Shown: positions 5,681 through 39,547 of the stretch, piece after piece
Layout: every line of letters begins with the position of its first letter
Position numbering within the stretch: position 1 is the stretch's first letter
Assembly: GCA_031261525.1 (NCBI GenBank)
Contig: JAISJM010000100.1
Span: 1,376 to 65,375, forward strand
Direction: 5' to 3'
Source of the DNA: Eubacteriales Family XIII. Incertae Sedis bacterium
GTDB taxonomy: Bacteria > Bacillota > Clostridia > Peptostreptococcales > Anaerovoracaceae
DNA: 64,000 nt
Translations under genes and position numbers: made by a program
Notes under the pieces: generated by a model
The model's input: the letters and a program-made list of their open reading frames with translations, nothing else
Told to the model about the DNA's origin: nothing
Databases searched by the model: none

Positions 5681-5813
5681 ATCGATTCTTCGTATTGTGA
5701 AATATGACGAGTAATGATGAAAAATGATGAAAATAAAGCATGGGGTTGTTCTCATGCTTTATTTTTGTGTAAAAGTGGTTTGCAGATGTACTGAATTAGG
5801 ATATGATAATAGA

Positions 5814-6563: not shown

Positions 6564-6627
6564 TGGATGCAAATGATGTATTCCGAAGCTTGCGGATTGA
6601 TCATTACATAAAACTGGAGTATAACTT

Positions 6628-8120: not shown

Positions 8121-8208
8121 AACATGGCACATCTGCATGTTATGCTGCGAAGAGGCGTATGATGGAGTACGAATCAGTTTTATACAAATTTAAAGATGGA
8201 GTGACTCG

Positions 8209-8934: not shown

Positions 8935-8958
8935 ACTTTGCAAGGAGATTAGGAACCT

Positions 8959-9579: not shown

Positions 9580-9612
9580 CATCGTGATTCCATTCATAGA
9601 GAGGATACGCAA

Positions 9613-10296: not shown

Positions 10297-10399
10297 GCAA
10301 GAAATAAATAAGCAAGAAATATCAGCAATGTACAAATATGTGCAACTTTTTTTACAACAGTCAGGATTCTGACTGTTGTATTTTTGAATTTGTGATATA
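10291..10399 (+). repeat. Intergenic cassette, copy 1: aaataagcaagaaat (x2), a terminator hairpin and TGTGATATA
   Basis: It shares aaataagcaagaaata, aacttt.ttt.caa.acagtcag-N4-ctgactgtt and tgtgatata with 18061-18155. Confidence 0.8.
10354..10386 (+). terminator. Rho-independent terminator after the crp-family gene
   Basis: acaacagtcag-gatt-ctgactgttgt forms an 11-bp stem followed by atttttg. Confidence 0.75.
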
Positions 10400-10439
10400 G
10401 TAACCATATCTACATCCATTCATTTTAAATGAAATTCAG

Positions 10440-13400
10440 ATGAAATTTAGAAGCATGAGGTCGCTGGTTGCTATGAGCAAACTATATAAGAAAATATCAA
10501 TACTATTCATTTTTGTGATGATTGCCAGTTTTATTCCCCGTCCTTTTGGCGGTTCAGATGTCTATGCCAAGGGAAGTCTTGCGGAGGGCGATACTGTCAA
10601 AAATGTACTCATCTATGCGAAAGATAGCGAAGACAATGATGTACTCCTCTCGCAATTGAATGTTGAGGAGATGCTTGGCTATCTGAATCAGCACATCTCG
10701 GAAATCGGAAAAGTTCATAATTATTCCATTTTAGATACCTATCCCACGACGGTACATCAAGAAGCACAGGGCTTCACGTTGCCCCAGCTACTTGATTATG
10801 CTGTATCAAAATCAAGTCTAACTGACATTGCCACAAACAATTTGACTTTTGATGGAGAAAATAATGGGGAAAAGTCCGTCTCGTTTTGGGAGCTTGATGG
10901 CACAGGCTTTGATGCAACGGATGCGTATACGTATGACAAGTTATACGGTGTGCCAAGATACAATTATCCGAAGATGTATGAGGAATGGAATCCAAATGCA
11001 CAATCGGCAAGCCCTGGTTCTAGCTATGTCAATAAAAACATAGTGGAAGATAGTGCTGTTCCAGAAGAAGTCATTCTGTCGATTACGGCATTTTCCCAAA
11101 GATATAGTAATAGTCAACAAGAAGGCAAGTCTGATTACAACATGGAAGGATATTTTGATAGCATGGGCTTGCTCGATACCTCTAAAGCGATGCGTCTCAT
11201 GCTTCCACTAACGGGACAGGAGTTTGCGGCGGAGACGAAGACTGCGATGAACAGCCGATATGGGATATCGTATATCCGGTTTGATTTAGGTGACGATACT
11301 GGATTGACCTCACTTGGCGAAGTGGCAAAACCGACATGGACGGTGATCGATGGCGATGAAGATAGCACAGACGCATATGAAAGCGGCTATAGTTATTTTA
11401 CATTTGCATGTAATACGCCAGGTGCAACGATATTGTACAACGATAGTTCAACAAGCAGTTACATCCCGACTGCGACATATAACGGACAGGCAATTAAGGT
11501 AAAGAAGATCGGTACAAATGCACGTGCGGCAATCAAAGTCCGTGCTGTGAAAGAGGGCTACACAGATAAAGGCGTCATCAATGCGACAAATATACTGGAT
11601 GAGGGGTTCTATGAAGATGTATCTGAAGATGCGGATGTGTGGGATGGCAAGACGATCGATATGGATTGGTATGTTGGACATGAGGACGACGATGTTTATA
11701 CCATCCATACCGCGGCAGAGCTTGCAGGTCTTGCTGCGATTGTCAATAGCACCACGGACGGGGACACGGATTTGAGTAAGAGAGTGACTTTTGCAGGCAA
11801 GACAGTCACACTTGTCTCGGATATTCATCTCAATCGACAGGTTTGGCGTGGTATCGGATCTGACATGGGCAGGCAGGCTGGAAATGTCGCAACCAATGTC
11901 GACTTGGATTTTTATGATACATTCAGTGGACTCTTTGATGGCAGTGGACATACGATTAGCGGTATGAATCTTGGGGATTCTCCTTGGAATATGGGATTAT
12001 ATGGACTCTTTGGTAATCTTGAAGATGCTACCGTGAAGAATCTGACGGTAAGTGGCATCGGTTATCATGAGATGCCAACTGCGATGGGCGGCATCGCTGG
12101 ACGTGCGATAGACAGCACCATTGAAAACTGCAAGGCAAACATGATGTTAGAGGGTGATGGCAATGTGGAAATGGGCGGTATTGTTGGACGCAGTACGGAT
12201 ACGACGATTCGCAATTGTGAAAATGTCGGCTTACTAAAAGGTTATTATGTTGGCGGTATTGTTGGTCGTGGCTACGAAGATAGTTCCATAAGCGATTGTA
12301 TCAATCATGGATTTATGGATGCCAATGAGGATGCAATCATAAATAGGGGTTTTGGTGGCGGAATCATAGGCTATGCCAGCGATCGTACGCTTATCGCGAA
12401 TTGTAAAAATGATTCTATAAATAAAAATGCAAACAAGTCCGTATCTATGGATGTTGGCGGTATCGGCGGCTATGGCGGTATGTATGTCAATTGTGTAAAT
12501 GATGCAGATATTCGATCCTCAAAATCCGTTGCAGGTATTTTAAACAACGCAGTAAGTGGTAAAAAGATACATAGCGTATCGGATTGTGTGAATTATGGCA
12601 ATCTGAACGGCTCTACTGCATATGGCATTGCTGGGTTTGCAACAATCACGCGCACAATTAATGTGGGCAATCTGACAGGTACGTCCGCATATGGTCTCAC
12701 AGGGAATTACAAGTCTGGTGGCGATGACCCCAATGTATCACTGTCGGCAAACTTTGGTGATGTCTATGGACATGCGATTGCCGCAGGTCTGATTGGAACG
12801 CAGAGCGGCATCTTGAGCAATTCCTTCAATCAAGGCGCTGTTCATAGTGATAAGGCAGGATCTGCTGCGGGGCTTGTCTGGACTGGAAGAAATCGTATCT
12901 CGAATTGCTATGACATATCAGAGAATCCCGTGATCCATGCGGTATCTGGTAGTCCTGTATTTGACAATGTATTCTACCTCGATTCAGGCAATGCAGCAGA
13001 TACAGCGGCGGGTGCATATCCAAATGTTACAGCATGTACAGAAAGCGCCATGAAGAATATTTCATTCGTCAATACGGATTTGGGTGCATACAATGCGGAA
13101 CTAGGCGAACTATCTCCTGGCAAGTTCATCACGACAGGTGGTGGCTATCCTGCCCTGTATTGGCTGCAAAAGAGTCTTACGATTTCTGCAAAACCAAGCA
13201 ACACACAGATTCTATTGAAAGATGCCAGCGGCGTTACTAAAACTGCCGTAACAGTCATCTCAAATAGCGGTATCCTTCATACCTATCCGCTCATCTGGGG
13301 TGCGTCATATACGTATCAAGCAACCGCACCTGGATATCATGCTGAGAATAAGTCTTTCCATCTGAAAGATGAGACAAGCCTTGAAATAAGCCTCTTGACG

Positions 13401-14768
13401 AGCATGGTCAACGAAACGATTCCATCTGAAGTCACGTTAAATTGGGCGGACAATCCGCAGACGACGCAGTCCGTAAGTTGGGCTGACAGCAGTGGTGGTT
13501 CTCAAGTTGTTCAATATATCGTAAGTAGTGCTTACAGCAATGCGGATTCACTGAGTAAGGGTACGTCTGTGATTGGAACTGCAAAGAAACTAGGCAGTAC
13601 CGATAAGACCTATTACAATGCGCAAATGACAGGACTAGAGCCAAATACCACCTATTACTATCGCGTAGGCACGCCAAACAATTGGAGTGAAATCTCTCAT
13701 TTTACAACCGCACAGAGTGATAAAAAGGACTTCAAATTTCTCTTCATGGGCGATATCCAGCGAAGTACAGGCACTGCAGAAGTAGAATATCCACAATGGG
13801 GCAAGCTACTCGGCGATGCCTATACTGCCAACCCAGATATCAAATTCGGATTGACGATTGGTGACATGGTTCAGAGTGGATCCGACCTTACGGACTGGAA
13901 GTATTTCCTATCCTATGCGCAGACGGCATTTTCAAAGATTCCATTAATGCCCAATATTGGTAATCACGAAAGCAATTTTGCAAATGGCAAAGCAGACTAT
14001 TATCTGGATATTTTCAACCTGCCTAAAAATGGTCCCGAAGGCTTCGAAGAAGAATTCTATTCTTTCGATTATGGCAATGTACATATCACAGCGTTGAACA
14101 GTTGGGCGTTGTCAGATGAGCAGGGCATCTACGACACAAAAGGTAACGTGAAAGACGAAACAACCCTGAACCGAATCAATCAATGGATTGAAGATGATCT
14201 TGCATCGACCAAAGCAAAGTTTAAGATTATTACGATGCATCACCCCATATATGCGATGGAAAATGATGCCGTATCGGATCGAGCAAAGATGCAATGGGAG
14301 CCGATTTTTATCGCACAGGGCGTAGATCTTGGTCTTGTCGGACATCAGCATGTCTATTCACGGACGTATTCTATTGCAGATGGCAATCAAGATGATGAAA
14401 AGGGGATCACTTATGTCATGGGCAACGCAGGGTTAAAATACTATAATACCGCTGACGATACGTATGTCGCGAAGATTATCTATAATCAGAGTACATACCA
14501 GATTTTAGATGTCTCTGGGGATACACTTTCGCTGAAGACCTATGATAGAGATGGAAAACAGCTAGATACATGGTCCAAAACCAACGAAACGATTGTCGTT
14601 CCAGGCGATGTCGATGACGATGGTGTGACGACGATGGAGGATGTGAATCGAATCAAGATTGCCGTGCTCGCAGGTGGCAGCTATGACAAGTCACTAGATG
14701 CAAATGGCGACAATGTCGTTGATATTCGAGATGCACAGTATGTACTTCGGATTGTAAATGGACGATAA
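10440..14768 (+). CDS. Giant secreted multidomain protein A (1442 aa): SUOX-fold-like N-module, GLUG beta-helix repeats, purple-acid-phosphatase-like metallophosphoesterase, C-terminal dockerin
   Basis: There is a signal/anchor segment (ISILFIFVMIASFI). Repeated GGIVGR/GGIAGR..NC motifs are GLUG-like. All five metallophosphatase motifs are present: FMGDIQ, IGDMVQSG, IGNHES, MHHPIY, GHQHVY. The C-terminus GDVDDDGVTTMEDVNRI...DANGDNVVDIRDAQYVLRI is a two-F-hand dockerin pattern. Confidence 0.85.
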   Translation: MKFRSMRSLVAMSKLYKKISILFIFVMIASFIPRPFGGSDVYAKGSLAEGDTVKNVLIYAKDSEDNDVLLSQLNVEEMLGYLNQHISEIGKVHNYSILDTYPTTVHQEAQGFTLPQLLDYAVSKSSLTDIATNNLTFDGENNGEKSVSFWELDGTGFDATDAYTYDKLYGVPRYNYPKMYEEWNPNAQSASPGSSYVNKNIVEDSAVPEEVILSITAFSQRYSNSQQEGKSDYNMEGYFDSMGLLDTSKAMRLMLPLTGQEFAAETKTAMNSRYGISYIRFDLGDDTGLTSLGEVAKPTWTVIDGDEDSTDAYESGYSYFTFACNTPGATILYNDSSTSSYIPTATYNGQAIKVKKIGTNARAAIKVRAVKEGYTDKGVINATNILDEGFYEDVSEDADVWDGKTIDMDWYVGHEDDDVYTIHTAAELAGLAAIVNSTTDGDTDLSKRVTFAGKTVTLVSDIHLNRQVWRGIGSDMGRQAGNVATNVDLDFYDTFSGLFDGSGHTISGMNLGDSPWNMGLYGLFGNLEDATVKNLTVSGIGYHEMPTAMGGIAGRAIDSTIENCKANMMLEGDGNVEMGGIVGRSTDTTIRNCENVGLLKGYYVGGIVGRGYEDSSISDCINHGFMDANEDAIINRGFGGGIIGYASDRTLIANCKNDSINKNANKSVSMDVGGIGGYGGMYVNCVNDADIRSSKSVAGILNNAVSGKKIHSVSDCVNYGNLNGSTAYGIAGFATITRTINVGNLTGTSAYGLTGNYKSGGDDPNVSLSANFGDVYGHAIAAGLIGTQSGILSNSFNQGAVHSDKAGSAAGLVWTGRNRISNCYDISENPVIHAVSGSPVFDNVFYLDSGNAADTAAGAYPNVTACTESAMKNISFVNTDLGAYNAELGELSPGKFITTGGGYPALYWLQKSLTISAKPSNTQILLKDASGVTKTAVTVISNSGILHTYPLIWGASYTYQATAPGYHAENKSFHLKDETSLEISLLTSMVNETIPSEVTLNWADNPQTTQSVSWADSSGGSQVVQYIVSSAYSNADSLSKGTSVIGTAKKLGSTDKTYYNAQMTGLEPNTTYYYRVGTPNNWSEISHFTTAQSDKKDFKFLFMGDIQRSTGTAEVEYPQWGKLLGDAYTANPDIKFGLTIGDMVQSGSDLTDWKYFLSYAQTAFSKIPLMPNIGNHESNFANGKADYYLDIFNLPKNGPEGFEEEFYSFDYGNVHITALNSWALSDEQGIYDTKGNVKDETTLNRINQWIEDDLASTKAKFKIITMHHPIYAMENDAVSDRAKMQWEPIFIAQGVDLGLVGHQHVYSRTYSIADGNQDDEKGITYVMGNAGLKYYNTADDTYVAKIIYNQSTYQILDVSGDTLSLKTYDRDGKQLDTWSKTNETIVVPGDVDDDGVTTMEDVNRIKIAVLAGGSYDKSLDANGDNVVDIRDAQYVLRIVNGR

Positions 14769-14783
14769 AGGGGAACGCACAAA

Positions 14784-17700
14784 ATGACGAAATACAATAT
14801 CAATGAAAACCATAAATTCCGAATTACAATCGCTATCTTGCTGATTCTCTCTTTGGTTCTGGTTCCTATTACACCATGGCGGCAGCTTGATACATGGGCG
14901 AAGACAGCTGAATCACCACAAGCGAAGAATCTCTTTGTCTATGTGAAAAATGATGAGGATAAAGATATTCTATTAAAGACACTTCCATTAGATGCGCTGA
15001 AGACGATGCAGCATGGCAATGATGCAACACCTGATCCAGATGACAATTACTATTTCTCTGCAATAGACAATCTACCAGCCATCGCATACACGGAGGCAAA
15101 AGGTTTCACAGCACAAGAATTGCTCGAAACTGTAAAAAACACCACGAGCGTAATCAGCCCTGCAGCGATTACGTTTGGTGGCAATGACGCGATTGAACTG
15201 ATGGCAACAGATTCGAATGGAACCTATAATAAATCGTGGACGTACGATGAACTCTACGGTCAGCAGGGCTATTATTATCCTGACATTTTTGATGCTACTA
15301 CAGGCTGGACTTCTGCTTGGACTGTCACTGGAGACGGGTATTCACCAGAGAGTACGCCTGCGATGCCTTTGCCACTCTATATGAGCAGCTACAAAGATGC
15401 GGATCCCACCTATGATAAGAAAGCCGCTGTATCCGAAAGCGCGATAGAAATGGATGCGATTTTTGCTGTCGATTCTGTTACAGACAGAATCGACAATCTA
15501 GCGGAAGAATACGGTAAGACGCGAGCGGAAATCATTGCCAGCGGACTGCCGGGGGAACTTAGCGATGCATATAGACTTACTTTATGCGTGCCTCAGACAC
15601 CGGACGTCCTTTTCTCTGCAAATCACACGATGCATCACTATTTTAAGTGGATTTACAATATCCGCTTGAACATGGCGGACGCGCCTACCATTCCATCCCT
15701 TGGTGAAGTGGAATCGCCGACTGCTGACATTCGTGTAGACCCAGAAAATGAAAATAGACTAATTGTAGACTTTGACGTCGCAACGTCAGGCGCATCCATC
15801 TACTATTCGATTGGAAAAAACAATGCGATTTCTAGTTCTGCAACGGGTGGTGCGATTGAATTTGGTACGGCACCTGTGCATGCGTATACAGGGGAATCCA
15901 TCGCGATTGATTTGAAGTCTGGTGCCGATCTGAAGACGACGCCAATCAAGATTTACATGACAGCGGTCAAAGAAGGCTATACGGATAATGGCATACAGAC
16001 AATAAGCTATCCCAAACAGTCTCCAGATTTGAAGAGAAAGACGAATGAGGCGTATCATGCCATTGGCGAAGATGTTGTGTATGAACTGACTTCACCACCC
16101 GCTGTTACAAATGAAGCATGGATAGACTGGACTTCCAATATCACGGCTGCCTCGATTAAGGTTGGAAGTGACGCTGCTACACCACTTGTAAGTGGCGCTG
16201 GTTTTCGTGTGGACAATACTGCGAGGACATTTGCCATTGACACTTCTTCGTTTACAAAAGTGGGTTCCTATGTTGTAAAGATTGATGCGGATGGATATTC
16301 TCAAAAGACACTGAACTTTACAATGCGCAAAGCTGCGCCGACGATCTCTAGCACGAGCGCATATTATGGTAACCGCATTGACATCAGTGTGCCCGACAAA
16401 GATTATTTAATGACTGGGATACGGTCAATCGATATCAGAAAAGACGGTACTGATACGACATCCAAAGTCACAATCCCTACAAATCGCTATTTAATGACAG
16501 CGGGAGCCGATGGAAAGCCTGGAACGCTTACGATTTCACCTGATTATTATGGCGATATAAATACGGTCATCGATGGTTCTGGTACATATATCATCGGTTT
16601 CAATACGAATGATTATCTTCCAGCAAGACAGGAAATGACTGTCGAAATCAAGGCTGCTGGCGACAATCCAAATGGTTTCTTCGAGTACAGCCTTGCTCCG
16701 AGCAAGGCTTCGGGAACGGTCGGCGATACAATCAAGGTGACCGCCTCGCTGAAATCACAGGGTGGAGATTTTACGTTTTATGGCGGTGAGTACCGAATTG
16801 CGATAGATGCTGGCATGACAGTAAAGAACATTCAGACAGCAAATGGATGGGAAAGTGGCACGACTACATCTGACAAAAAGACAATTTTGACATTTGCAAA
16901 GCTTGAACCTACGAGTGATGGGGAGCTTACGACATCGGTATCTGCCCTTGGAACATTTGATGTGACGCTTGACGCAGTAGGCACAGGAAACCTCACAGCG
17001 ACAAATGCGCTGCTCACCGATGATATCGCACTGAATCGCAACAATGTGTCAGGAAAGAGTCTATCGATTCAGATTGCACCAAAGGCAAATCTGAATCAGA
17101 AGACACCTGCAGCACCGAAATTGACCTATAAATTAAACGCGGACAAAAAGACCTATACCGTCACAATTCCAAAGGTTGCAGGCGCAGAATATAGCTTCGA
17201 TGGAAAGACATTTAGTGCGGCAAGTACTGCCAATGTGAAGAAAAATGTTGCACAAGGGAAAGTGATTACAGGATATATCCGTCTTGCGGCAAAGGCGGGA
17301 TACAACGCAAGTGGCATCGCATCTTCTAAAGTCACGTTGCCCGTTCGCGTGACAAAGATAACCGTGACCTCAAAGAATAATACGGCGGTCATTAAGACAA
17401 AAGGCGGTAAGCTTCAGCTCACAGCAACCGCTAGTCCTGCAAAGGCAACGAACAAATCTGTCACATGGAAAGTGGTTTCCGGCACAGCAGGTACTGTGAA
17501 TTCAAAGGGTGTACTTACAGCCAAATTCAACGGTAAAGTGACCGTCAGAGCCACTGCCAAAGACGGTACAGGTGTCTATGGCCAGAAGATGATTACATTG
17601 TCGAATCAGGCGTATAAAGTGACGTTTAACTCAAATGGGGGCACTGCAATAACGGCGAAAGCTGTCAACAAGAATGCGAAAGTATCAAAGCCGACCAATC

Positions 17701-18056
17701 CGAAGAAGACGGGCTATACTTTTAAGGGCTGGTATACGGATACAAAGCTAAAGAAAGCTTATTCGTTTAGCTCGAAAGTTACGAGCAATAAAACGCTTTA
17801 TGCAAAGTGGGCTGCCAATAAATATGCCGTCACATACGACGCGCATGGTGGCAAGATTGGCAAAGCAAAGACGGTTAAGAAGACGATTGCCTATGCAGCG
17901 AGGTACACATTGCCAGCAACGCCTAAGCGATCTGGATATACATTCAGCGGATGGTATACGACGAATAAAGCAACGGGCGGCACAAAGGTTACAAACAACG
18001 TACAGATGAAGACGGCAAAAGCACACACACTTTACGCTCGCTGGAAGAAGAAATGA
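14784..18056 (+). CDS. Giant secreted multidomain protein B (1090 aa): SUOX-fold-like N-module, Ig-like domains, cohesin-like domain, Big_2 domain, two Listeria-Bacteroides (Flg_new) repeats
   Basis: There is a signal/anchor segment (ITIAILLILSLVLV). The N-module is paralogous to A and D (AYRLTLCVPQT...YFKWIYNIRL). The Big_2 pattern is KLQLTATASPAKATNKSVTWKVVSG. The Flg_new repeats are YKVTFNSNGG...GYTFKGWYTD and YAVTYDAHGG...GYTFSGWYT. The gap from gene A is 15 nt. Confidence 0.85.
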   Translation: MTKYNINENHKFRITIAILLILSLVLVPITPWRQLDTWAKTAESPQAKNLFVYVKNDEDKDILLKTLPLDALKTMQHGNDATPDPDDNYYFSAIDNLPAIAYTEAKGFTAQELLETVKNTTSVISPAAITFGGNDAIELMATDSNGTYNKSWTYDELYGQQGYYYPDIFDATTGWTSAWTVTGDGYSPESTPAMPLPLYMSSYKDADPTYDKKAAVSESAIEMDAIFAVDSVTDRIDNLAEEYGKTRAEIIASGLPGELSDAYRLTLCVPQTPDVLFSANHTMHHYFKWIYNIRLNMADAPTIPSLGEVESPTADIRVDPENENRLIVDFDVATSGASIYYSIGKNNAISSSATGGAIEFGTAPVHAYTGESIAIDLKSGADLKTTPIKIYMTAVKEGYTDNGIQTISYPKQSPDLKRKTNEAYHAIGEDVVYELTSPPAVTNEAWIDWTSNITAASIKVGSDAATPLVSGAGFRVDNTARTFAIDTSSFTKVGSYVVKIDADGYSQKTLNFTMRKAAPTISSTSAYYGNRIDISVPDKDYLMTGIRSIDIRKDGTDTTSKVTIPTNRYLMTAGADGKPGTLTISPDYYGDINTVIDGSGTYIIGFNTNDYLPARQEMTVEIKAAGDNPNGFFEYSLAPSKASGTVGDTIKVTASLKSQGGDFTFYGGEYRIAIDAGMTVKNIQTANGWESGTTTSDKKTILTFAKLEPTSDGELTTSVSALGTFDVTLDAVGTGNLTATNALLTDDIALNRNNVSGKSLSIQIAPKANLNQKTPAAPKLTYKLNADKKTYTVTIPKVAGAEYSFDGKTFSAASTANVKKNVAQGKVITGYIRLAAKAGYNASGIASSKVTLPVRVTKITVTSKNNTAVIKTKGGKLQLTATASPAKATNKSVTWKVVSGTAGTVNSKGVLTAKFNGKVTVRATAKDGTGVYGQKMITLSNQAYKVTFNSNGGTAITAKAVNKNAKVSKPTNPKKTGYTFKGWYTDTKLKKAYSFSSKVTSNKTLYAKWAANKYAVTYDAHGGKIGKAKTVKKTIAYAARYTLPATPKRSGYTFSGWYTTNKATGGTKVTNNVQMKTAKAHTLYARWKKK

Positions 18057-18060
18057 TGTG

Positions 18061-18155
18061 AAATAAGCAAGAAATAGAACCAATATATAGATAACTAAAA
18101 CTTTCTTTCAAAACAGTCAGAAATCTGACTGTTTTGCTTTTCATTCTGTGATATA
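18061..18155 (+). repeat. Intergenic cassette, copy 2 (paralog of 10291-10399)
   Basis: The same blocks occur in the same order upstream of the second GLUG-protein gene. Confidence 0.8.
18110..18142 (+). terminator. Rho-independent terminator after gene B
   Basis: aaaacagtcag-aaat-ctgactgtttt forms an 11-bp stem followed by gcttttc. Confidence 0.75.
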
Positions 18156-18219
18156 CTCATGTTAATTCGCTGAAAGATATTGAGAAGTTAAATAATTTAG
18201 TTGGAGAACGGGGGAAATT

Positions 18220-20808
18220 ATGTTGAAGACGCACACAAGCGCAAAGCACAAAATTCTATCCATTTTATTGGCGTTGTTGATTGTGGTATCATTTATGCCA
18301 CAAGTTCCGCAGGTTTATGCGGATGATATTGTGGGTGGCAATGAAGCACCAATCGTCAGTACGTGGGATGGTCAAAGCTATGATATTTCTTGGTACAACA
18401 CGGAAGATACAGAGTTTACACTCAATTCCGCAGCACAATTTGCAGGGTTTGCAGCGATTGTAAATGGTGAGACCCAAATTTGGGATGATGATACAAATCA
18501 ACCAACCCCATGGTACAATGGTGGAACAGCGATTCCTGGTGAGCCGCTCAAGATCGGTGAGCAAACGATTGCTGCGGATGATTTTACGGATAAGATTGTC
18601 AATCTAAATGCGGATGTTGATTTGGGCGGCATCTATGATGCTGAAGAGGGCACATGGGGTGGTGCCGTATGGCCTGTAATCGGACATTATACGAGTTCAA
18701 GTGCGGCTGGAAGTAATGATGGCCTAAAAGGCATTCCGTTCAAAGGTACTTTCAATGGTAATTTCCATAGCATCTCAAATATGTATGTAAGAGGTGATTA
18801 TTCAGCCGCTGATGATGTTGCGTCATGTAACTCAAAAGGATTATTTGGCGATTTAGGACATGTTGCACTTGTCAAAAATGTAATTCTTACATCAGGCTAT
18901 GTTACGGTAGCACGCTTTGGTGGTGGTATTGTCGGTAGAAACTGGGGCAATGTAGAGAATTGCGCAAATGGCGCGACAGTTGTTGGTAGAGGTCGTGGTG
19001 GTGCAGGCGGTATTGTCGGTGCAAATTATTACAACAATTTACCATTACCTGAGATTACAAATAGTTATAATTTTGGTACAGTTAAAAATCTTGGTGGTTC
19101 AAAATATTATCACGCAGGTGGAATTGCTTCCTTAAATGAGGGCGTTATTACAAACTGCTATAATGTTGGAACGATTATCAGCCGAGATCAAGCGGGTGGT
19201 ATGGCGGCTGAATCCAAGACGCTGATGAATAGTTTTACACTTGCTGGAACAAATGTAAAAGCGACAGCAAATGGCGAAGAAGTAAGTCGTACTGATGCAC
19301 TCGTGGGTAAAAACAATGGTACCATTGATGCAACTTCTGCAATTCTTACAAGCGATGACATGACGGATCCTGCATTTGTCACTTTACTAAATGGCGAGGA
19401 CAATGCCTTTGTTCCAGATTTATCTGGTATCAATCAAGGTTATCCAATCCTCAGTGGTTATGCACTTTTAGCCGTTTCAAAAGAACTATACTCAATTGAA
19501 GTAAAGACACAGCCAAATCAACGAGCTTACACGAGCGGTGATTCTTTCAATAAAGATGGACTCGAAATTGAAGCAACCTACTTAAATGGTGAAAAGAGTA
19601 TCCTTGCAGATGAAGACTATAGCGTCACTCCAGAAGTATTAAGCTCTGCGGATACAAGCGTTACCGTGAGCTATACCGATGGTGATATTACAAAGAATGT
19701 AACAATCGACGGCATCACCGTTGAAAAAAGAACCATCTCTGCAATCACAGAACCTGCAATTACAGGCGATGCAACGGTAAATAACACGCTTTCAGTAAGT
19801 ACTGGCGAATGGAGCGAGACACCAGATGCGGTAACCTATCAATGGTATGCAGATGCTGCACCAATTACAGGTGCAACGGACAGCACCTATAAGCTGACAG
19901 TAGCGGATCATAGTAAAGCAATCACGGCTCAAGTAACGGCATCCAAAGAAGAATGTCATGATGCTTCGATTGTCTCTAGTCCAACTGCCAAAGTCGGTGC
20001 ATGTACAATAGAAGTACAATCCCCGAGCATTACAGGTACTGCTAAAGTTGGTCAGACGCTGAAAGTGGATGCTGGTGTATGGAATCCAGAGGCAGAAATT
20101 CTAGGATATCAGTGGCTTGTCAATGGTACAGAAATTGCAAATGCAACAGGCACATCCTATCAGATCAAATCAGGTGACCTTGGAAAAGCAATCTCCGTGA
20201 AAGTCACCGCAAAGATATTGGATTATTACACTGTTGTACATACATCTACAAAGACTGCAAAGGTGACCGCAGACTTCGTCAAAGGAGATGTGAAAATCAC
20301 AGGAACTGTAAAAGTTGGTAAGCAGCTCAAGGCAGTACCTGATAGCAAATGGAGTCCAAAGCCAACTTATACCTATCAATGGTATGCAAATGGTCAGGCA
20401 ATTAAAAATGCAACAAAAGTGAACTATACAATCGCAAGTGGTGATTTTGGCAAGCAGATTACAGTTAAGGTAACTGCCAAGAAAGCAAATTATGTCACTG
20501 CAACAAAGACTTCTGCAAAGACTGCAAAGGTAAAAGCTGGAGACTTCACAAAAGGTAGCATTACAATCTCTGGCAAAGCGAAAGTTGGACAAAAGCTTAC
20601 TGCCAAGACAGCAAAGTGGAGTCCAACACCAACATTCACGTATCAATGGTATGCAAATGGCAAGGCAATCAAGAATGCAACGAAGTCTACTTATACATTA
20701 AAGGCGGCTGAGAAAGGAAAGAAAATCACAGTCAAGGTTACTGCGAAGAAGACAAACTATGTAACTGTCTCAAAGACTTCTGCAAAGACCACAAATGTAG
20801 TAAAATAA
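18220..20808 (+). CDS. Secreted GLUG-repeat protein C (862 aa) with one Big_3-like domain and four C-terminal ~89-aa YQWY repeats
   Basis: The signal peptide ends ...QVYA/DD. The N-terminus (TWDGQSYDISWY...AAQFAGFAAIVNG) is paralogous to the A segment VWDGKTIDMDWY...AAELAGLAAIVNS. GLUG-like GGIVGRN/GGIVGAN motifs are present. Confidence 0.85.
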   Translation: MLKTHTSAKHKILSILLALLIVVSFMPQVPQVYADDIVGGNEAPIVSTWDGQSYDISWYNTEDTEFTLNSAAQFAGFAAIVNGETQIWDDDTNQPTPWYNGGTAIPGEPLKIGEQTIAADDFTDKIVNLNADVDLGGIYDAEEGTWGGAVWPVIGHYTSSSAAGSNDGLKGIPFKGTFNGNFHSISNMYVRGDYSAADDVASCNSKGLFGDLGHVALVKNVILTSGYVTVARFGGGIVGRNWGNVENCANGATVVGRGRGGAGGIVGANYYNNLPLPEITNSYNFGTVKNLGGSKYYHAGGIASLNEGVITNCYNVGTIISRDQAGGMAAESKTLMNSFTLAGTNVKATANGEEVSRTDALVGKNNGTIDATSAILTSDDMTDPAFVTLLNGEDNAFVPDLSGINQGYPILSGYALLAVSKELYSIEVKTQPNQRAYTSGDSFNKDGLEIEATYLNGEKSILADEDYSVTPEVLSSADTSVTVSYTDGDITKNVTIDGITVEKRTISAITEPAITGDATVNNTLSVSTGEWSETPDAVTYQWYADAAPITGATDSTYKLTVADHSKAITAQVTASKEECHDASIVSSPTAKVGACTIEVQSPSITGTAKVGQTLKVDAGVWNPEAEILGYQWLVNGTEIANATGTSYQIKSGDLGKAISVKVTAKILDYYTVVHTSTKTAKVTADFVKGDVKITGTVKVGKQLKAVPDSKWSPKPTYTYQWYANGQAIKNATKVNYTIASGDFGKQITVKVTAKKANYVTATKTSAKTAKVKAGDFTKGSITISGKAKVGQKLTAKTAKWSPTPTFTYQWYANGKAIKNATKSTYTLKAAEKGKKITVKVTAKKTNYVTVSKTSAKTTNVVK
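19735..20805 (+). repeat. Four tandem coding repeats of about 267 bp (ITG.AKVG..L.A....WSP.PT..YQWY.NG..I.NAT...Y.......GK.ITVKVTAKK.NY)
   Basis: Read from the translation. A fifth copy lies in gene D at about 21705-21940. Confidence 0.85.
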
Positions 20809-20812
20809 TTAT

Positions 20813-22423
20813 ATGATTAAAAAAGCTGTTATAATTTTAATTCTATCCATACTCGTAGCCACTTCGGCTACGAGTATGTTTGGTGAATGGGACTTTTATT
20901 CTTATGCGGAGTCAGGTGGAACGAAAGAAGAAACTACGACAAACGAAGAATTGACGATACGTGTTGGATATTTTGGTTCGTCGCCAGATTATGTGGAAGT
21001 GAAGAAATACTCCCTTGCTGATTTACATGCGCTTGGTGTTCATGATCAGTCCTATAGCTGGATTGATTCGCTACCAGCACCCGTCATGCAAGCGACAAGA
21101 GGCGTCTATCTTCGAGATTTGATTGCAGATGCAGGAATTGATATCTATTCGGTCTCTCGATATGATTTCAGATCACGCGATGCGCATGAGCCATGGAGTG
21201 AGATGACATCACAGGCACTCTTTGATACGCCAAGGTATTTTTATCCAAATTTGGTGAGTACATGGGATCCGATCACGAATTGGATTGGTGTGGGCGTAGA
21301 AGAGGGAAGGGCTCCAGTCGAGGCAATGCTTGCGGTGGAAGACTATTGGGAACGCAGTATCTCAGAGCCTGACTATAGTAAGCTGCATGCAGCAGATTGC
21401 TATCGACTTGTCTTTGGTATGCCAACTTCGGATACAAAACTTGCGCATGATTCAATCAAATGGATTAAATCAATTGACTTGATGCTTGTCGGTTCACCAC
21501 CAGATGATTTTGGTAAAAATGATGAGGACGATTTAGCGGGTAGCGATCAGGATAACAACAACCCGGGTACTGGTAATGAACACGACCAAGATAAAGATAA
21601 AGAAAAAGACGATGACAATTCTTCGGATACTGGCAATCCAGATAAAGGTAAAGATACCAATGATGGCACGCCTGGTGCGACATTTGCAGAGGCATCGGAA
21701 CCAACCATTCGAGGCGTCGCACAGGTTCGTGAGACGCTTACTGCGTATCCTGGCACATGGTCGCCAACACCAACTTATGAATACCAATGGTATGCGGAGG
21801 ATGTGGCAATTGCGCGGGCTACAAATCAGACTTATCAGGTGAAGACAATGGATGTAGGCAAGCGGATTACGGTTAAGGTTACAGGCAGAAAAAGCGGCTA
21901 TACGGCAATGACCAAGACTTCGGCACCCACCGAACCTGTCGCACCAAAAGACCGCGATAGCAAAGTCTTTGGCGAAAAGGAGCAAAATGACAATGGTATA
22001 GATAGCAACGGAGGTGGTGATGACAAGCAAAACCACGGTGGCAGTGATGGCGATGCAGATGCAAGTGACCGCAGTGCTGCCAATGACAAGTCTGGTAGTG
22101 ACTCGGGTACAGGTGGCGGAAAGTATGTTCAAATTGGGCTTGCAGGTGGTGATACCATCTCGGGTAAAGAGCTCTCTGCCGCAGACACGCTGAAAATGCT
22201 CGCCCTTGCTGGTGATGCGGGCGGCACGGGTACGGACAGCCCGTGGACAGCCTATGAAATTTCACCAGATACTGTGCCATTTAAGTTACCGCCGCCAGAT
22301 ATGAAGATGGTCGCGGTTGTGTTGGGGCTGCTTGTCCTCGCATTTATTGGCGGTGGTGTTCAGGGCTATATGACGTTCAATCCTGAACTCATGAGGCATA
22401 TAATGAAGAAAAGAAGGAGCTAA
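20813..22423 (+). CDS. Membrane-tethered surface protein D (536 aa): signal peptide, SUOX-fold-like module, acidic D/K/N linker, one YQWY repeat, G/D/S-rich linker, Pro-rich segment, C-terminal TM anchor
   Basis: GVYLRDLIADAGIDIY ... CYRLVFGMP ... SIKWIKSIDL matches the Oxidored_molyb-type signature. The C-terminus is PFKLPPPDMKMVAVVLGLLVLAFIGGGV followed by the basic tail KKRRS. The gap after gene C is 4 nt. Confidence 0.8.
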   Translation: MIKKAVIILILSILVATSATSMFGEWDFYSYAESGGTKEETTTNEELTIRVGYFGSSPDYVEVKKYSLADLHALGVHDQSYSWIDSLPAPVMQATRGVYLRDLIADAGIDIYSVSRYDFRSRDAHEPWSEMTSQALFDTPRYFYPNLVSTWDPITNWIGVGVEEGRAPVEAMLAVEDYWERSISEPDYSKLHAADCYRLVFGMPTSDTKLAHDSIKWIKSIDLMLVGSPPDDFGKNDEDDLAGSDQDNNNPGTGNEHDQDKDKEKDDDNSSDTGNPDKGKDTNDGTPGATFAEASEPTIRGVAQVRETLTAYPGTWSPTPTYEYQWYAEDVAIARATNQTYQVKTMDVGKRITVKVTGRKSGYTAMTKTSAPTEPVAPKDRDSKVFGEKEQNDNGIDSNGGGDDKQNHGGSDGDADASDRSAANDKSGSDSGTGGGKYVQIGLAGGDTISGKELSAADTLKMLALAGDAGGTGTDSPWTAYEISPDTVPFKLPPPDMKMVAVVLGLLVLAFIGGGVQGYMTFNPELMRHIMKKRRS

Positions 22424-22426
22424 CGA

Positions 22427-23041
22427 TTGGATACGAGTTCAGTTAAATCAGCAATACATATCATCTCTTCGTCACTTGAGATACCCGCAATTATCGTATT
22501 AATTTTGGCGGTTGTCATTGTTGTATCCCAGATTGGGAGTGTTATGATAGAGTTTTTTACAGAGCGCATGGGGAAGAATCCCAACGTCACGAAAGTATTG
22601 GAAAACATTTCTGGCAAAGAGCGTACACAGATTCTTGAAATCATCAATGCCAATCCATTTCAGAAATCTCAAAAAAGGGCATTTGCGCGCTTCCTTCAAA
22701 GCGATATCATCTCAGTCGATGAACAGAAGCTTTTCGCAGTGCAGCTTCTATCCGAGACAGAATCAAGGCTCGACCGCCGCATCGCAGTTACGGACATCAT
22801 TGCGCGCATCGGTCCCATGTTTGGCTTGATGGCAACATTGATTCCGCTAGGACCGGGGCTTATCGCACTCGGTCAAGGTGACACGCGGACATTGTCCGAT
22901 TCGCTACTTACGGCATTTGATGCTACGGTAGCGGGACTTGCTGCTGCAGGTGTAGCGTATATTATTTCCAAAATTAGGAAAAGATGGTATCAAAGTGATA
23001 TGATGGCAATGGAGACAATACTGGAAGGAGTGATTCGCTGA
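22427..23041 (+). CDS. MotA/TolQ/ExbB-family proton-channel protein (204 aa)
   Basis: Three predicted TM segments are present. The C-terminal half, IGPMFGLMATLIPLGPGLIALGQGD...LLTAFDATVAGLAAAGVAYI, follows the MotA_ExbB pattern (P..GL.GT......L.......L...I..AL.TT..GL). TTG start 7 nt after aaggag. Confidence 0.75.
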   Translation: MDTSSVKSAIHIISSSLEIPAIIVLILAVVIVVSQIGSVMIEFFTERMGKNPNVTKVLENISGKERTQILEIINANPFQKSQKRAFARFLQSDIISVDEQKLFAVQLLSETESRLDRRIAVTDIIARIGPMFGLMATLIPLGPGLIALGQGDTRTLSDSLLTAFDATVAGLAAAGVAYIISKIRKRWYQSDMMAMETILEGVIR

Positions 23042-23382
23042 TGCTCAGAAGCAATTATAGAAGTAGAAAACGCTATTTTGATGAAGAGGATGTCAATCCA
23101 ATGGAGGGCGCTGTCAATATCGTTGACGCGATGCTCGTCTTCGCTTGTGGACTCATGCTCAGCCTTGTCATCTACTGGAATGTTGATATTCAAAATAAGG
23201 AACTTGTACCCGTATCGCGAGGTCAAGAAGTCTCTGGCATTGAAAGCACACAGGAAGATTTGCAAGGTAGCATCGATGGGGAAGGTCAATATGAGAAGAT
23301 GGGGACTGTATATGTGGATCCGAAAACGGGCAAGATGTATATGGTAAATGAGGATACCGATGGTACAGAAAATGAAGAGTAA
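23041..23382 (+). CDS. ExbD/TolR-like single-pass membrane protein (DUF2149-like, 113 aa)
   Basis: A basic N-tail is followed by the TM segment NPMEGAVNIVDAMLVFACGLMLSLVIYW. Its Asp (codon 23125-23127) lies where ExbD/TolR carry the proton-relay Asp (compare P.IDVMLVLLIFF). The start overlaps the upstream stop (TGATG). Confidence 0.65.
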   Translation: MLRSNYRSRKRYFDEEDVNPMEGAVNIVDAMLVFACGLMLSLVIYWNVDIQNKELVPVSRGQEVSGIESTQEDLQGSIDGEGQYEKMGTVYVDPKTGKMYMVNEDTDGTENEE

Positions 23383-24469
23383 TCGCATTGCAATCTTTTT
23401 TATCCTGCTATTTACAATCGCGGCATTTGCGACATTTTCAGGCTGTAGCAAGGCTGATTCATCTTCGCTCCATTATTTGGATCAGAAAATCACAATTGTC
23501 GGCGTGTCGGACGAGGACTTTACAGTCACCGTTTCCAATCTGACAAAGCTGGATCGTGTGGAAAAAAAAGCAGAAGCAACGAGATCCAATGGCGATATTG
23601 TAAAGATGAAAGCGGTTGGTCCAACGCTTGAGACATTTCTTGCGCAGTATGATAAACTTCCCACGGATTACTCGTCTGTACGGTTTACCGCGACAGACGG
23701 TTATTCGATTGCGATTCCACGAGAGATTCTTGAACGGCGCGAAATCGTCTTAGCCTATATGGATGGCAAACATGCCTTTGGCAAAGATATGGCGCCGTTG
23801 CGCGTTGTTGTCCTTGGTGAACGCGCGATGTACTGGGCGCGCATGGTCAACAAAATTGAATTTGAGACAGGCACGGAATCTTTGACGACAGATAAAGTCG
23901 TCTTTCTTGATACCATTTTGCCAGATATGAACAGTACCTATAGCGAAGAAGAGGGTGGCGATATCGTCAGTACGATTGATTTGCTTACAAAATATGGCGG
24001 TCTGGATAGTGATGGCAAAGTCTATATGTCAGCTTATGACGGTCTAAAGAAAAATGAAACCATTGATAATTTTCTAAAAGGTTACATCAAATATACGGGT
24101 GAGATGACACCTCAATTTTGCTCACCAGATTTACCACCGGGTATGAATCTCGACGGCATTGTGTCCGCAAGGGTTGGCGGCGTCATCTATTATTCGCTGA
24201 ATCGCGCTTTAGAAGTTCTGCCAGAAAAGGAAGCTGCTGGCGTGAAAGGTATCGGTTTCACTGACATCATAAAGGATGGGGGCTTTAAGCGTGCCAATTT
24301 GTATCAAATTACAGATAAAGATGGCAATTACTCCGTATTTAATGAACATGAAATTGTAAAAGGCGTCTTTACAAAAGACAATGACACGTGGACTTTTGTA
24401 TCCGCGGAGAAAGATCCAGTCATTGGTGTCGTCATGGTAGAGGGCATCGACATGGAACAAGGCGAATAA
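23360..24469 (+). CDS. Lipoprotein G with SUOX-fold-like (Oxidored_molyb-like) module(s)
   Basis: The lipobox is AFATFSG/C. The segment VRFTATDGYSIAIP..IVLAYMDGKHAFGKDMAPLRVVVLGERAMYWARMVNKIEFE closely follows the MsrP/YedY-type pattern. ATG 23360 lies 5 nt after gagga. The track start is 23348. Confidence 0.75.
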   Translation: MVQKMKSNRIAIFFILLFTIAAFATFSGCSKADSSSLHYLDQKITIVGVSDEDFTVTVSNLTKLDRVEKKAEATRSNGDIVKMKAVGPTLETFLAQYDKLPTDYSSVRFTATDGYSIAIPREILERREIVLAYMDGKHAFGKDMAPLRVVVLGERAMYWARMVNKIEFETGTESLTTDKVVFLDTILPDMNSTYSEEEGGDIVSTIDLLTKYGGLDSDGKVYMSAYDGLKKNETIDNFLKGYIKYTGEMTPQFCSPDLPPGMNLDGIVSARVGGVIYYSLNRALEVLPEKEAAGVKGIGFTDIIKDGGFKRANLYQITDKDGNYSVFNEHEIVKGVFTKDNDTWTFVSAEKDPVIGVVMVEGIDMEQGE

Positions 24470-24495
24470 AGATTCAAGGGCGATGGGAGAATGGG

Positions 24496-25332
24496 ATGCT
24501 CGTAAACAATAACCGCTATGACAACTACGACAGCAGCAACAGCAACAGCAACGACAATAACAGCAACAGGCGCTTTGTTGCGACATTTGCAATGATTTTA
24601 ATTGCGATATTGGTCACGCTCGGACTGTTTTTGTCAGGTTGTGCGTCACGCAGTGCGCCTCGCAGTACGTCAAGTAGTACAGAGGAACGTTTCCTCTCCA
24701 TTGAGGGGGACGTCATAGATTATCGATCGATGAAGACTGGCGATCAAGATTTTTCTGGCATATCATTGCCAGAATTTTTATCTGAAAGCAAGATTTCTGG
24801 TACCCCCAAATACATCTATCTCATCTCATCTGGCGATGGATTTGTCGCGAAGATTGACTATGAAAATTCAGAAAAAGTTTCTATTATTTTTAGTGAGACG
24901 ACAGGCTGGAGCATCGTCGCACCTGACCATCCCATCAGCACCAATGCCGTAGACTTAGATAAAATCATTGTCGTATCTGACGATAGTGAAGTTGGTCTTC
25001 ACATCATCAAGCAAGATGGCAGTACGGATATCGTATCGATGGGCAAAATCCTCACCTCTCCGATGCTGTATGAACTGCATTATGAAGGCGCTTCCGATAT
25101 TGGTAGTGGAAAAGACAAACGCACAACAGAAATATATACAAGGCAGATGTCGGTAAAATTGGCTGATATCTATGATGCGTACAACGATGAACCATTTGCT
25201 GTCACAACAAAATCAGGCGACAAATATCTGACAGACGGTAGCGGACGTTTTTCTATGAATCGGCAAAAAATAAACTACATCGAAGAAACGGGTGACATTT
25301 ACGAAGATGTTCAAGAGATACAGCTACGGTAA
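24496..25332 (+). CDS. Lipoprotein H, paralogous extracytoplasmic module, with an N/S-rich N-terminal extension
   Basis: The lipobox is GLFLSG/C, preceded by NNNRYDNYDSSNSNSNDNNSNRR. The start was set at ATG 24496 behind gggagaatggg. The module ISLPEFLSESKISG..YIYLISSGDGFVAKIDYE resembles the G/D modules. Confidence 0.65.
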   Translation: MLVNNNRYDNYDSSNSNSNDNNSNRRFVATFAMILIAILVTLGLFLSGCASRSAPRSTSSSTEERFLSIEGDVIDYRSMKTGDQDFSGISLPEFLSESKISGTPKYIYLISSGDGFVAKIDYENSEKVSIIFSETTGWSIVAPDHPISTNAVDLDKIIVVSDDSEVGLHIIKQDGSTDIVSMGKILTSPMLYELHYEGASDIGSGKDKRTTEIYTRQMSVKLADIYDAYNDEPFAVTTKSGDKYLTDGSGRFSMNRQKINYIEETGDIYEDVQEIQLR

Positions 25333-25418
25333 ATGGGTCTATGAATGGGTACAATTTGGAACAATAAAACATATGTGTAAAGCATATAATATTTGACGAT
25401 ACGAAAGGATTCAAAATA

Positions 25419-25610
25419 ATGTATGAAGTAGGAACCGAATGCAATAGTGGCAACAGAAAGACAACAGGTGAAATCATCCTGAAAATAGATGGCGAAGAGC
25501 TCGTCTTAGTTCCATTTGTACAAAATATTCTTAAAGATACGATTCTTGCAATCACAAAGGAACTAAACGGCTATAAAGAAGATTGTAAAATCGAGATAAC
25601 AATCTGTTAA
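25419..25610 (+). CDS. Small hypothetical protein (63 aa)
   Basis: It has an aaagga RBS and the same strand as the operon, starting 86 nt after gene H. I recognise no family. Confidence 0.4.
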   Translation: MYEVGTECNSGNRKTTGEIILKIDGEELVLVPFVQNILKDTILAITKELNGYKEDCKIEITIC

Positions 25611-28544: not shown

Positions 28545-28621
28545 GCGCCATTAGCTCAGCTGGATAGAGTAGCGCACTACGAATGCGAAGGTCGGGAGTT
28601 CAAATCTCTCATGGCGCGCCA
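28545..28621 (+). tRNA. tRNA-Arg (anticodon ACG) with encoded CCA
   Basis: Hand-folded cloverleaf. The acceptor stem is GCGCCAT/ATGGCGC, the D stem GCTC/GAGT, the anticodon loop CTACGAA, and the T arm GGGAG-TTCAAAT-CTCTC. The discriminator is G, followed by CCA. Confidence 0.9.
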
Positions 28622-39545: not shown

Positions 39546-39547
39546 CA

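Follow-up and report, generated by a model that had tools for sequence, protein, structure and literature searches.

A Clostridial locus combining ECF transporter genes, SUOX/PruR-fold surface modules and an ExbB/ExbD-like pair: a candidate route for acquiring the molybdenum or tungsten pterin cofactor

Described systems closest to the locus

Riboswitch-controlled vitamin importers of the energy-coupling factor (ECF) class (ThiT, RibU, CbrT and QrtT types) consist of the two ATPases EcfA and EcfA', the scaffold EcfT and a small S component, and ECF importers normally work without extracytoplasmic binding proteins. The locus described here is found in a 64,000-nucleotide stretch of DNA from a Family XIII Incertae Sedis bacterium of the Clostridia (contig JAISJM010000100.1, positions 1,376 to 65,375; hereafter the window), and encodes EcfA, EcfA' and EcfT upstream of nine genes, A to I (Table 1). 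The S component and the upstream cofactor riboswitch of the ECF vitamin importers are also present in relatives of the locus, but not in the window. In contrast to the ECF importers, loci of this type add modules with the fold of sulfite oxidases (SUOX), secreted phosphoesterases, MobB, a kinase and often an ExbB/ExbD-like motor. The S components of the relatives belong to PF09819, a family which presumably includes YkoE. We propose that the locus is a lineage-specific, expanded form of a widespread Clostridial cassette that acquires the pterin cofactor of molybdenum (Moco) or tungsten (Wco), or a precursor or breakdown form of it, and we give this reading a probability of about one half. To our knowledge, bacterial Moco is generally held to be made by the cell and never imported. 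Neither a bacterial Moco importer nor a Moco-linked ECF transporter was found in the literature, Moco uptake was found reported only for the nematode C. elegans (PMC7849362), and a survey of riboswitch regulons has no Moco category under coenzyme uptake, be it by ECF or other transporters (PMC3766115). A characterised system with the architecture of the locus was not found in the literature either, in agreement with a preliminary description of genes A to I that had been made from the sequence. The locus would combine two known kinds of system, in that a cofactor importer of the ECF class is joined by a capture arm energised by an ExbBD-type motor, and its likely substrate is new.

The capture arm has its closest counterpart in the hmuYRSTUV operon of Bacteroidota. 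Adjacent genes for a MotA_ExbB protein and a DUF2149 protein are common to both systems (HmuU/HmuV, and E and F of the locus), and each pair would be part of a cofactor-acquisition operon; as a gene pair, it is thus not without precedent. HmuU and HmuV are predicted to energise HmuR, and in methanogens DUF2149 was noted as linked to TolQ. F has a single transmembrane (TM) segment with an invariant Asp and may in this respect be of the ExbD/TolR type. Unlike the TonB-ExbB-ExbD and Hmu systems, however, the locus belongs to a monoderm host without outer membrane, TonB or TonB-dependent receptor, in which such a motor would not be expected, and the candidate partner D is anchored C-terminally and carries a predicted ligand-binding module. 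Families of TonB, TolA or TonB-dependent receptors were not found in the window, and HmuY, HmuR and the CobN-like HmuS are missing from both the window and the mapped related loci.

The modules, as modelled for G, have their closest counterpart in PruR (PDB 7kom, 7kp2, 7kos, 7rkb), with which they share a small secreted SUOX fold that lacks the Mo-ligating Cys. PruR has been characterised only in Proteobacteria, as a signalling protein, and stacks the pterin between Tyr104 and Trp160, with N102 also being used (PMC11194511). In contrast to the locus, PruR has Pro-Trp in place of the Cys and pairs with the c-di-GMP enzyme DcpA, whereas the modules of this locus type are multiplied, fused to anchors or enzymes and tied to a transporter and a Moco riboswitch. 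MsrP/YedY-MsrQ and the sulfite oxidases have the fold and the Pfam family in common with G, but G has neither the Mo-ligating Cys nor MsrQ or a haem partner, and is not a member of the SUOX-family enzymes.

The cassette in related genomes and its riboswitches

A scan of one genome per species with an alignment of G resulted in 80 related loci (given L numbers here), almost all of them from Clostridia/Bacillota, and a second sample consists of 40 metagenome loci of at least 8 kb that were seeded with F. The genome loci were mapped by phmmer using the window proteins and the proteins of L004 as queries. Carriers include Family XIII/Anaerovoracaceae, Syntrophomonas, Pelotomaculum, Peptococcaceae, Thermacetogeniaceae, Clostridium ragsdalei, Acetobacterium, Ca. 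Formimonas and Oscillospiraceae. The core cassette has the order G, small SUOX protein, S component (PF09819), phosphodiesterase, small SUOX protein, EcfA, EcfA', EcfT, MobB and Bud32/RIO/APH-like kinase; the phosphodiesterase is a secreted AlkP-type enzyme (PF01663) fused to an H-like module, and MobB carries an Fe-S-like and I-like tail. The S component adjoins the ECF genes in 43 related loci. In the expanded form, the core is joined by E and F, by at least one D-type protein, by a purple acid phosphatase (PAP) and by large proteins with A/B modules, which are anchored by dockerin, cohesin or SLH domains. The locus in the window is of this expanded type. The presence of ECF genes, a Moco/Wco riboswitch, MobB, a kinase and phosphoesterases in the relatives points to cofactor acquisition, and genes A to I are an add-on to an ECF cassette, which is riboswitch-controlled in the relatives, rather than the free-standing adhesin or envelope system that had been proposed.

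Riboswitches of the Rfam family RF01055 (Moco/Wco) are located directly upstream of the core cassette in L066, L049, L073, L080, L004, L047 and other loci, with scores of 55-83 bits at a gathering score of 36. They were also found directly upstream of D-E-F (L028, L040, L042) and upstream of a phosphatase gene (L021, L028), and PAP genes, which recur across the related loci, follow riboswitches. A covariance model (R1), which was built from five RF01055 matches, detected 68 copies in 56 loci, some of them in tandem. In 25 of the 36 genome matches, the riboswitch is followed, as the next labelled gene, by G (19 cases) or by a small SUOX gene; in 3 genome and 12 metagenome matches, a D-type gene comes next. 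In L040, L042, L132, L158 and L120, the riboswitch is followed by a D-type gene, by E at about +1.5 kb and by F at about +2.2 kb. The relatives thus switch the cassette on when the Mo/W cofactor is low, so that capture and import of the cofactor are its most likely function. In S. wolfei, many Moco RNAs had already been found beside "genes of unknown function" (Regulski et al., PMC2408646).

Some riboswitches stand out by their arrangement. Tandem aptamer pairs (L092 1401-1695, L145 1400-1693, L116 2274-2593, L120 380-691 and L124 1042-1587) precede S-component, D-type or phosphatase genes, and such pairs were likewise reported for S. wolfei by Regulski et al. In L040, which derives from a Thermacetogeniaceae metagenome-assembled genome, a c-di-GMP-I riboswitch (1536-1621) is found 2 kb ahead of the Moco riboswitch of D-E-F. 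Anaerovirgula multivorans (L066) has a second, very high-scoring Moco riboswitch beside the cassette (19870-19994, minus strand), and an ABC transporter gene about 1.8 kb downstream of it may encode a molybdate or tungstate transporter. In L049, from the complete genome of Clostridiaceae 35-E11, the riboswitch is followed first by a gene for an RnfG/NqrC-like FMN_bind protein (9333-9866). Some versions of the cassette may thus include a redox step outside the cytoplasm, perhaps keeping the pterin reduced.

The main rival to cofactor acquisition is the import of tungstate or molybdate; the adhesin, molybdoenzyme and pterin-sensor readings considered below are weaker. Here, the ECF transporter would import the oxyanion, which is concentrated by the surface modules and phosphatase-type domains. 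Both oxyanions, tungstate and molybdate, are ligands of the purple acid and alkaline phosphatase folds, and the carriers are syntrophs and acetogens rich in tungsten enzymes. Most of the riboswitches are short (61 of the 68 matches have at most 125 nt), and the one Rfam-aligned riboswitch upstream of D-E-F has no P3 hairpin; hit length and this alignment were used, the presence of P3 being unreliable in the model-fitted alignment A5. The short cassette riboswitches may therefore represent the P3-less form of Moco-type RNAs, which is associated with the tungsten cofactor, the P3 stem being associated with Moco, and Moco riboswitches classically control the mod and tup transporters (Regulski et al., PMC2408646). 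We nevertheless consider oxyanion import unlikely: the modules have the pterin-binding fold of SUOX and PruR, the S component is of the vitamin type PF09819 and not CbiM or NikM, and MobB, the kinase and the nucleotide pyrophosphatase-type enzyme are hard to account for. A function in the acquisition of haem or cobalamin, which the Hmu analogy and the HID domain of B would suggest, was rejected as the principal reading, since the Moco riboswitch, MobB and a fold that binds pterins all speak against it.

The D-E-F triad and the surface modules

The assignment of E as a MotA/ExbB-like protein, already made in the preliminary description, was confirmed by Pfam (Table 1); F, described there as ExbD-like, belongs to DUF2149 and not to the Pfam family ExbD. 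For E, a sequence search of the PDB returned only weak matches to MotA structures; for F, it returned only spurious matches to repeat proteins and no solved relative. The single TM segment of F contains an invariant Asp29 within NIVDAMLVFACG (alignment A3), and the homologs of F share a conserved C-terminal hairpin, YEKMGTVYKDPxTGKLYM. Among 35 non-redundant loci that contain E, F is adjacent in 32; a D-type gene is located directly upstream of E in 30 and directly downstream of F in four of the remaining five. In L016, no D-type gene is adjacent to E-F. All 40 F-seeded metagenome loci combine E-F with D-, G- or small-SUOX-type modules or with PAP, so that the linkage of E-F to SUOX-like module proteins, the synteny on which the first interpretation depended, is seen from both G seeds and F seeds.

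The D-type proteins of these loci all end with the signature [W/G]-R-[V/I]-[Y/F]-E-[M/I]-S-A-D-x-V-P (in D, a conserved WxxYE(I/M)SxDxxP motif), followed by a short TM helix that serves as C-terminal anchor and by a basic tail. Among the 47 proteins retrieved by a pattern search with this signature, 42 have their end no more than 100 nt from an E start, mostly with a 4-nt overlap. The D-type module family itself is small: an exhaustive representative search across 1.84 billion proteins yielded 377 clusters at 50% identity. By analogy, D looks like a candidate TonB-like, force-receiving partner of E-F. A force-receiving role had been suggested before, and this part gains support from the anchor motif, which is nearly exclusive to the gene upstream of E, whereas the free-standing structural system in which the role had been placed is not supported.

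The three large secreted proteins carry domains that are common in adhesins. Pfam detected Glug, Pur_ac_phosph_N and Metallophos in A, the phosphatase motifs GNHE and GHQH of which are readable in the sequence; Shr-like_HID, Big_2 and Flg_new in B; and Glug and Ig repeats in C. The GLUG, Ig-like and phosphoesterase parts noted earlier were thus recovered, and the dockerin of A scored below the cut-off, with its two Ca-loop motifs being visible by eye. A cohesin-like domain, which had also been proposed, is unsupported in B, where it was not found by Pfam and a PDB sequence search with that region returned nothing. A and B are related to each other (BLASTP 4e-20), a B-like protein with HID and SLH domains adjoins PAP and Crp in L166, and a C-like gene precedes D in L005, L007, L009, L013 and L014. 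C and D share an Ig-like repeat of about 85 amino acids (ZirU-like in NCBIfam), with four copies in C (19700-20808) and one in D (21700-21950); the copies are 40-53% identical to each other, and the neighbouring genes therefore seem to have exchanged or duplicated the repeat.

A, B, C and their relatives contain GLUG, Ig-like, dockerin, SLH, cohesin and HID domains, which, together with the conserved D-E-F triad, would suit a cellulosome-like adhesin or envelope apparatus that is powered by the proton motive force (PMF), with the modules as structural or force-bearing parts and a Moco link that is only regulatory or incidental. However, this explanation is rather improbable, as it leaves unexplained the constant company of ECF, MobB, kinase and phosphoesterase genes and the riboswitches directly upstream of D-E-F.

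SUOX-fold modules had been described for five proteins, A, B, D, G and H. The claim is solid for G and good for H and D, and A and B are linked to the family transitively via D. G matches the Pfam family Oxidored_molyb (PF00174) with 2.6e-5 and 24.3 bits at a cut-off of 24, and the majority of 43 relatives of G have a precomputed PF00174 match. A Foldseek search with an AlphaFold2 (AF2) model of G (mean predicted local distance difference test score, pLDDT, 87.7) matched the Moco domains of the SUOX family, namely SoxC (1e-7), sulfite oxidases and YedY, and the PruR structures 7kom, 7kp2 and 7kos with TM-scores of 0.64-0.72 normalised to the target, the best being the 134-residue 7kom (0.72). 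Whether the Mo-ligating Cys is retained had been named as a check: in an alignment of 18 G sequences, the lipobox Cys is the sole conserved Cys and the Mo-ligand position reads A/G-x-R-S-N-G, and the consensuses of the module families contain no Mo-ligating Cys either. G is thus, judging from the model, a SUOX/PruR-fold protein without Mo-ligating Cys, and because the modules lack this residue, they probably serve in binding and not in redox chemistry. G and the small SUOX families have conserved DGY and YW blocks, their correspondence to the stacking Tyr and Trp of PruR being by motif only; the Pro-Trp motif of PruR was not seen in these proteins.

The other modules were compared by hhalign using family profiles built from the related loci. 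The small SUOX profile matches the N-terminal module of G with a probability of 100%, its C-terminal half with 91-94%, D with 97.3% and H with about 97.5%; the matches of H and D to the G and small SUOX profiles span 96.6-97.6%. G and the D module were aligned with 96.6% (5e-10), which is confident only over the first ~75 residues, and the D and A/B modules with 99.8% (3e-30), while the direct comparison of the A/B modules with G was not significant. A large insertion is present in the D, A and B modules. H is also related to the N-domain of the phosphodiesterase (Phosphodiest) protein of L004 (phmmer 4.7e-9), and an H-like module is fused to PAP in L007. D and H have no Pfam family, and G, the S component and the small SUOX proteins are not covered by any NCBIfam model.

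The Oxidored_molyb matches, the RnfG-like FMN_bind protein that is the first cassette gene product in L049, and the fact that Moco riboswitches also precede genes of Moco-using enzymes (PMC2408646) could be taken to indicate an extracytoplasmic redox system of the MsrP/YedY type, in which the SUOX-like proteins are real molybdoenzymes that are made only when needed and matured by the products of the other genes. This is still less probable than an adhesin, since neither G nor the module families have a conserved Cys at the Mo-ligand position and the window contains no MsrQ, haem or cytochrome partner, the relatives having just an occasional FMN_bind gene; moreover, a riboswitch that shuts genes off when Moco is plentiful suits acquisition better than use. 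That the modules act as a PruR-DcpA-like receptor, which senses excreted pterins and signals to the cell, is very improbable, although PruR is the best small-domain structural match (TM-score 0.72, normalised to target), as no DcpA-like GGDEF/EAL or histidine kinase partner is encoded in the locus and the surrounding genes code for a transporter and processing enzymes.

For the acquisition of a pterin cofactor, the following route can be envisaged. The modules of A, B, D, G and H, which are devoid of the metal-ligating Cys, would bind the pterin moiety and pass it inward, in a manner similar to the NEAT-domain relay of haem in the Isd system. The Isd/Shr relay is a likeness in the mode of working only: in both cases, paralogous modules are positioned at different depths upstream of a membrane importer, here by dockerin or SLH domains, wall repeats, a TM anchor and lipoproteins, and B carries a Shr-like HID domain; however, the fold is SUOX-like and not NEAT, ligand class and importer type differ, and a proton motor is added. 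Secreted phosphoesterases would then trim the dinucleotide or phosphate, a step that may be carried out by the PAP of A in the window and by the AlkP-type phosphodiesterase fused to the H-like module elsewhere. The product would be imported by the ECF transporter, formed by EcfA, EcfA' and EcfT here and completed by the PF09819 S component in the relatives, and could be re-activated in the cytoplasm by the MobB-like and kinase-like proteins of the core cassette; for this step, the window offers only ORF I, which corresponds to the C-terminal domain of MobB, and the NTPase_1 protein. NAD salvage in Haemophilus (NadN/e(P4)/PnuC/NadR) proceeds in comparable steps, with a pyrophosphatase and an acid phosphatase outside the cell, import, and a kinase or nucleotidyl-transfer reaction inside; again, only the mode of working is alike, the proteins and the cofactor being unrelated and the enzymatic steps of the locus being derived from domain families. 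Finally, D-E-F would form a TonB-like arm, in which the proton motor of E and F acts on the C-terminal anchor of D, and the PMF would drive a conformational cycle of D for capture or release across the thick wall. Gene content, folds, synteny and riboswitch linkage are observed; we infer the substrate, the direction of the relay and the role of the motor. That many Clostridia possess a dedicated scavenging system for Mo/W-pterins, drawing on their surroundings or on proteins of other organisms, and that, in one branch, an ExbB/ExbD-like motor pulls on D as a C-terminally anchored, ligand-binding TonB analogue is, as a combined claim, tentative.

Several points weigh against cofactor acquisition. 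A Moco riboswitch fits a molybdate/tungstate importer or a Moco-dependent enzyme equally well, and no riboswitch was found in the window (at the gathering score, and at E<=1 in bases 1-27000) or in the closest Family XIII relatives. A hidden Markov model (HMM) from 44 cassette S components detected no S component in the 64-kb window, and HMMs for the kinase and small SUOX genes found none there, the small-SUOX HMMs matching only G, D and H; the transporter is therefore incomplete as seen. The SUOX fold was not confirmed by Foldseek for the A/B module: the A module as modelled by AF2 (pLDDT 84.9) retrieved no SUOX fold, just weak FN3/Ig matches from its second domain, which is why this fold is not claimed for A and B. 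For E-F, the proposed role is drawn by analogy, and even HmuU/HmuV are just predicted energisers. Free Moco, moreover, is very labile. Several carriers (Syntrophomonas, Acetobacterium, C. ragsdalei) are able to make Moco, so that the cassette would serve salvage and not the rescue of an auxotrophy.

If cofactor acquisition and the motor-driven role of D-E-F both hold, the locus would be the first case of Moco/Wco uptake in bacteria, and also the first in which nutrient capture is energised in a TonB-like way in the absence of an outer membrane. The riboswitch-linked importer would then point to a new 'vitamin' in anaerobic cross-feeding (termite gut, digesters, syntrophic consortia), in communities whose main electron flow is carried by W/Mo formate dehydrogenases and aldehyde oxidoreductases. 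It would further provide a function for the uncharacterised DUF2149/MotA_ExbB pair of Hmu haem operons and methanogens, and ExbBD-type motors would be able to serve nutrient capture in cells lacking an outer membrane. Cultured carriers are Acetobacterium carbinolicum, Clostridium ragsdalei, Syntrophomonas wolfei and Anaerovirgula multivorans, in which the riboswitch could be used as a read-out.

Layout of the locus and neighbouring genes

The nine ORFs A to I are all encoded in the same direction, and re-checking of their coordinates gave the positions and spacings that had been stated initially. The intergenic distances are 15 nt (A-B), 163 nt (B-C), 4 nt (C-D), 3 nt (D-E), 26 nt (G-H) and 86 nt (H-I), and E-F and F-G overlap by 1 and 23 nt, respectively. 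The preliminary description had confined the locus to 10440-25610; with the upstream ECF module, it spans ~5724-25610. Gene G is 100% identical to the NCBI protein LBN22_06750 (369 amino acids, ATG at 23360).

Table 1. Features of the locus, with window coordinates and the evidence for each assignment
Feature	Position	Strand	Evidence
EcfA-type ABC ATPase 1	5724..6563	+	Pfam ABC_tran 4.8e-25
EcfA'-type ABC ATPase 2	6628..7329	+	Pfam ABC_tran 1.8e-29; orthologous to cassette ATPases
EcfT (CbiQ family) transmembrane scaffold	7320..8120	+	Pfam CbiQ 9.6e-25
Class I S-adenosylmethionine (SAM) methyltransferase, membership uncertain	8209..8934	+	Pfam methyltransferase families
NTPase_1 (THEP1-like) P-loop protein, recurrent accessory	8959..9579	+	Pfam NTPase_1 2.4e-26
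Crp/Fnr-family (FixK-like) regulator	9613..10296	+	Pfam HTH_Crp_2, cNMP_binding; NCBIfam FixK-like 1.4e-9
Palindrome copy 1, 5' of A (operator or terminator)	10357..10376	.	Exact repeat
A: secreted; D-type module, Ig-like domain, GLUG beta-helix, purple acid phosphatase, dockerin	10440..14768	+	Pfam, hhalign
B: secreted; D-type module, Shr-like HID, Big_2, Listeria-Bacteroides repeats	14784..18056	+	Pfam
Palindrome copy 2, 5' of C	18113..18132	.	Exact repeat
C: secreted GLUG and Ig-repeat protein, without SUOX-like module	18220..20808	+	Pfam, NCBIfam
D: signal peptide, SUOX-like module, Ig repeat, long acidic/Gly-rich linker, C-terminal TM anchor	20813..22423	+	hhalign
E: MotA/ExbB-family proton channel subunit, TTG start	22427..23041	+	Pfam MotA_ExbB 1.2e-10
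F: DUF2149, ExbD/TolR-like single-pass protein	23041..23382	+	Pfam DUF2149 1.2e-8
G: lipoprotein, tandem SUOX/PruR-fold modules (modelled), without Mo-ligating Cys	23360..24469	+	Pfam, AF2/Foldseek, hhalign
H: lipoprotein; module fused to phosphodiesterase or PAP in relatives	24496..25332	+	phmmer, hhalign
I: small stand-alone homologue of the MobB/FeS C-terminal domain	25419..25610	+	NCBIfam PRK14494 3e-6

The ECF genes of the window are orthologous to those of the cassette, with the closest counterparts in L013, L010 and L009 (EcfT against that of L013, 274 bits), and the best relatives of EcfA are ATPases of S-component-linked cassettes in L013, L009 and L010. In the window, the ECF module is adjoined by a gene for an acetyl-CoA transferase, at the position that is occupied by the S component and a small SUOX gene in the relatives. 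This would point to a rearrangement, or to an S gene at another site of the genome. At the other end of the locus, ORF I (63 amino acids) matches an HMM of the MobB family with 4e-16. Stand-alone orthologs of 65-74 amino acids are present in the Family XIII relatives L010 and L014, and the interpretation of ORF I as a remnant of a MobB pseudogene was rejected for this reason. The earlier statement that no Moco, haem or MsrQ-like gene is present therefore has to be amended for Moco, but stands for the others, as no cytochrome, haem-domain or MsrQ redox partner family is represented among the window genes. The P-loop part of MobB is missing at the window locus; the NTPase_1 gene recurs instead, with homologs inside the locus in L009, L013, L015, L024, L037, L039, L043, L083 and L166, and its product possibly stands in for the P-loop of MobB. 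The methyltransferase gene recurs in L009 only, beside the ECF module, and Crp homologs are located inside the locus in L015, L025, L037-L039, L052 and L166.

A perfect 8-N4-8 palindrome, ACAGTCAG-N4-CTGACTGT, is located upstream of A and C (2 copies versus 0.14 expected), no other intergenic gap of the locus being of appreciable size. Together with the FixK/Fnr-like regulator gene, the palindromes take the place of the riboswitch of the relatives. The flanks of the two copies are alike (10290-10410 and 18050-18160, aaataagcaagaaat ... tgtgatata), and the whole regulatory region therefore seems to be duplicated. A -10-like element, TGTGATATA, follows about 40 nt after the palindromes, a distance compatible with class II binding by the FixK/Fnr-like regulator encoded next to them, and this protein may regulate both operons through the palindromes. 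The palindromes also score as terminator hairpins. They were searched in all fetched related loci and found in none, being specific to the genome of the window, so that the operator reading has no support from conservation.

A megablast search of 20813-25610 against plasmids gave no match. Downstream of the locus, the window continues with housekeeping genes that are unrelated to it (25.7-48 kb). Among these, the region 37571-46215 encodes a T2SSE-type secretion ATPase, DUF5702, DUF6382 and DUF5685 proteins and a DnaJ-domain protein, which are likewise unrelated to the findings described here, and a tRNA gene is located at 28545-28618 (Rfam RF00005, 59.6 bits).

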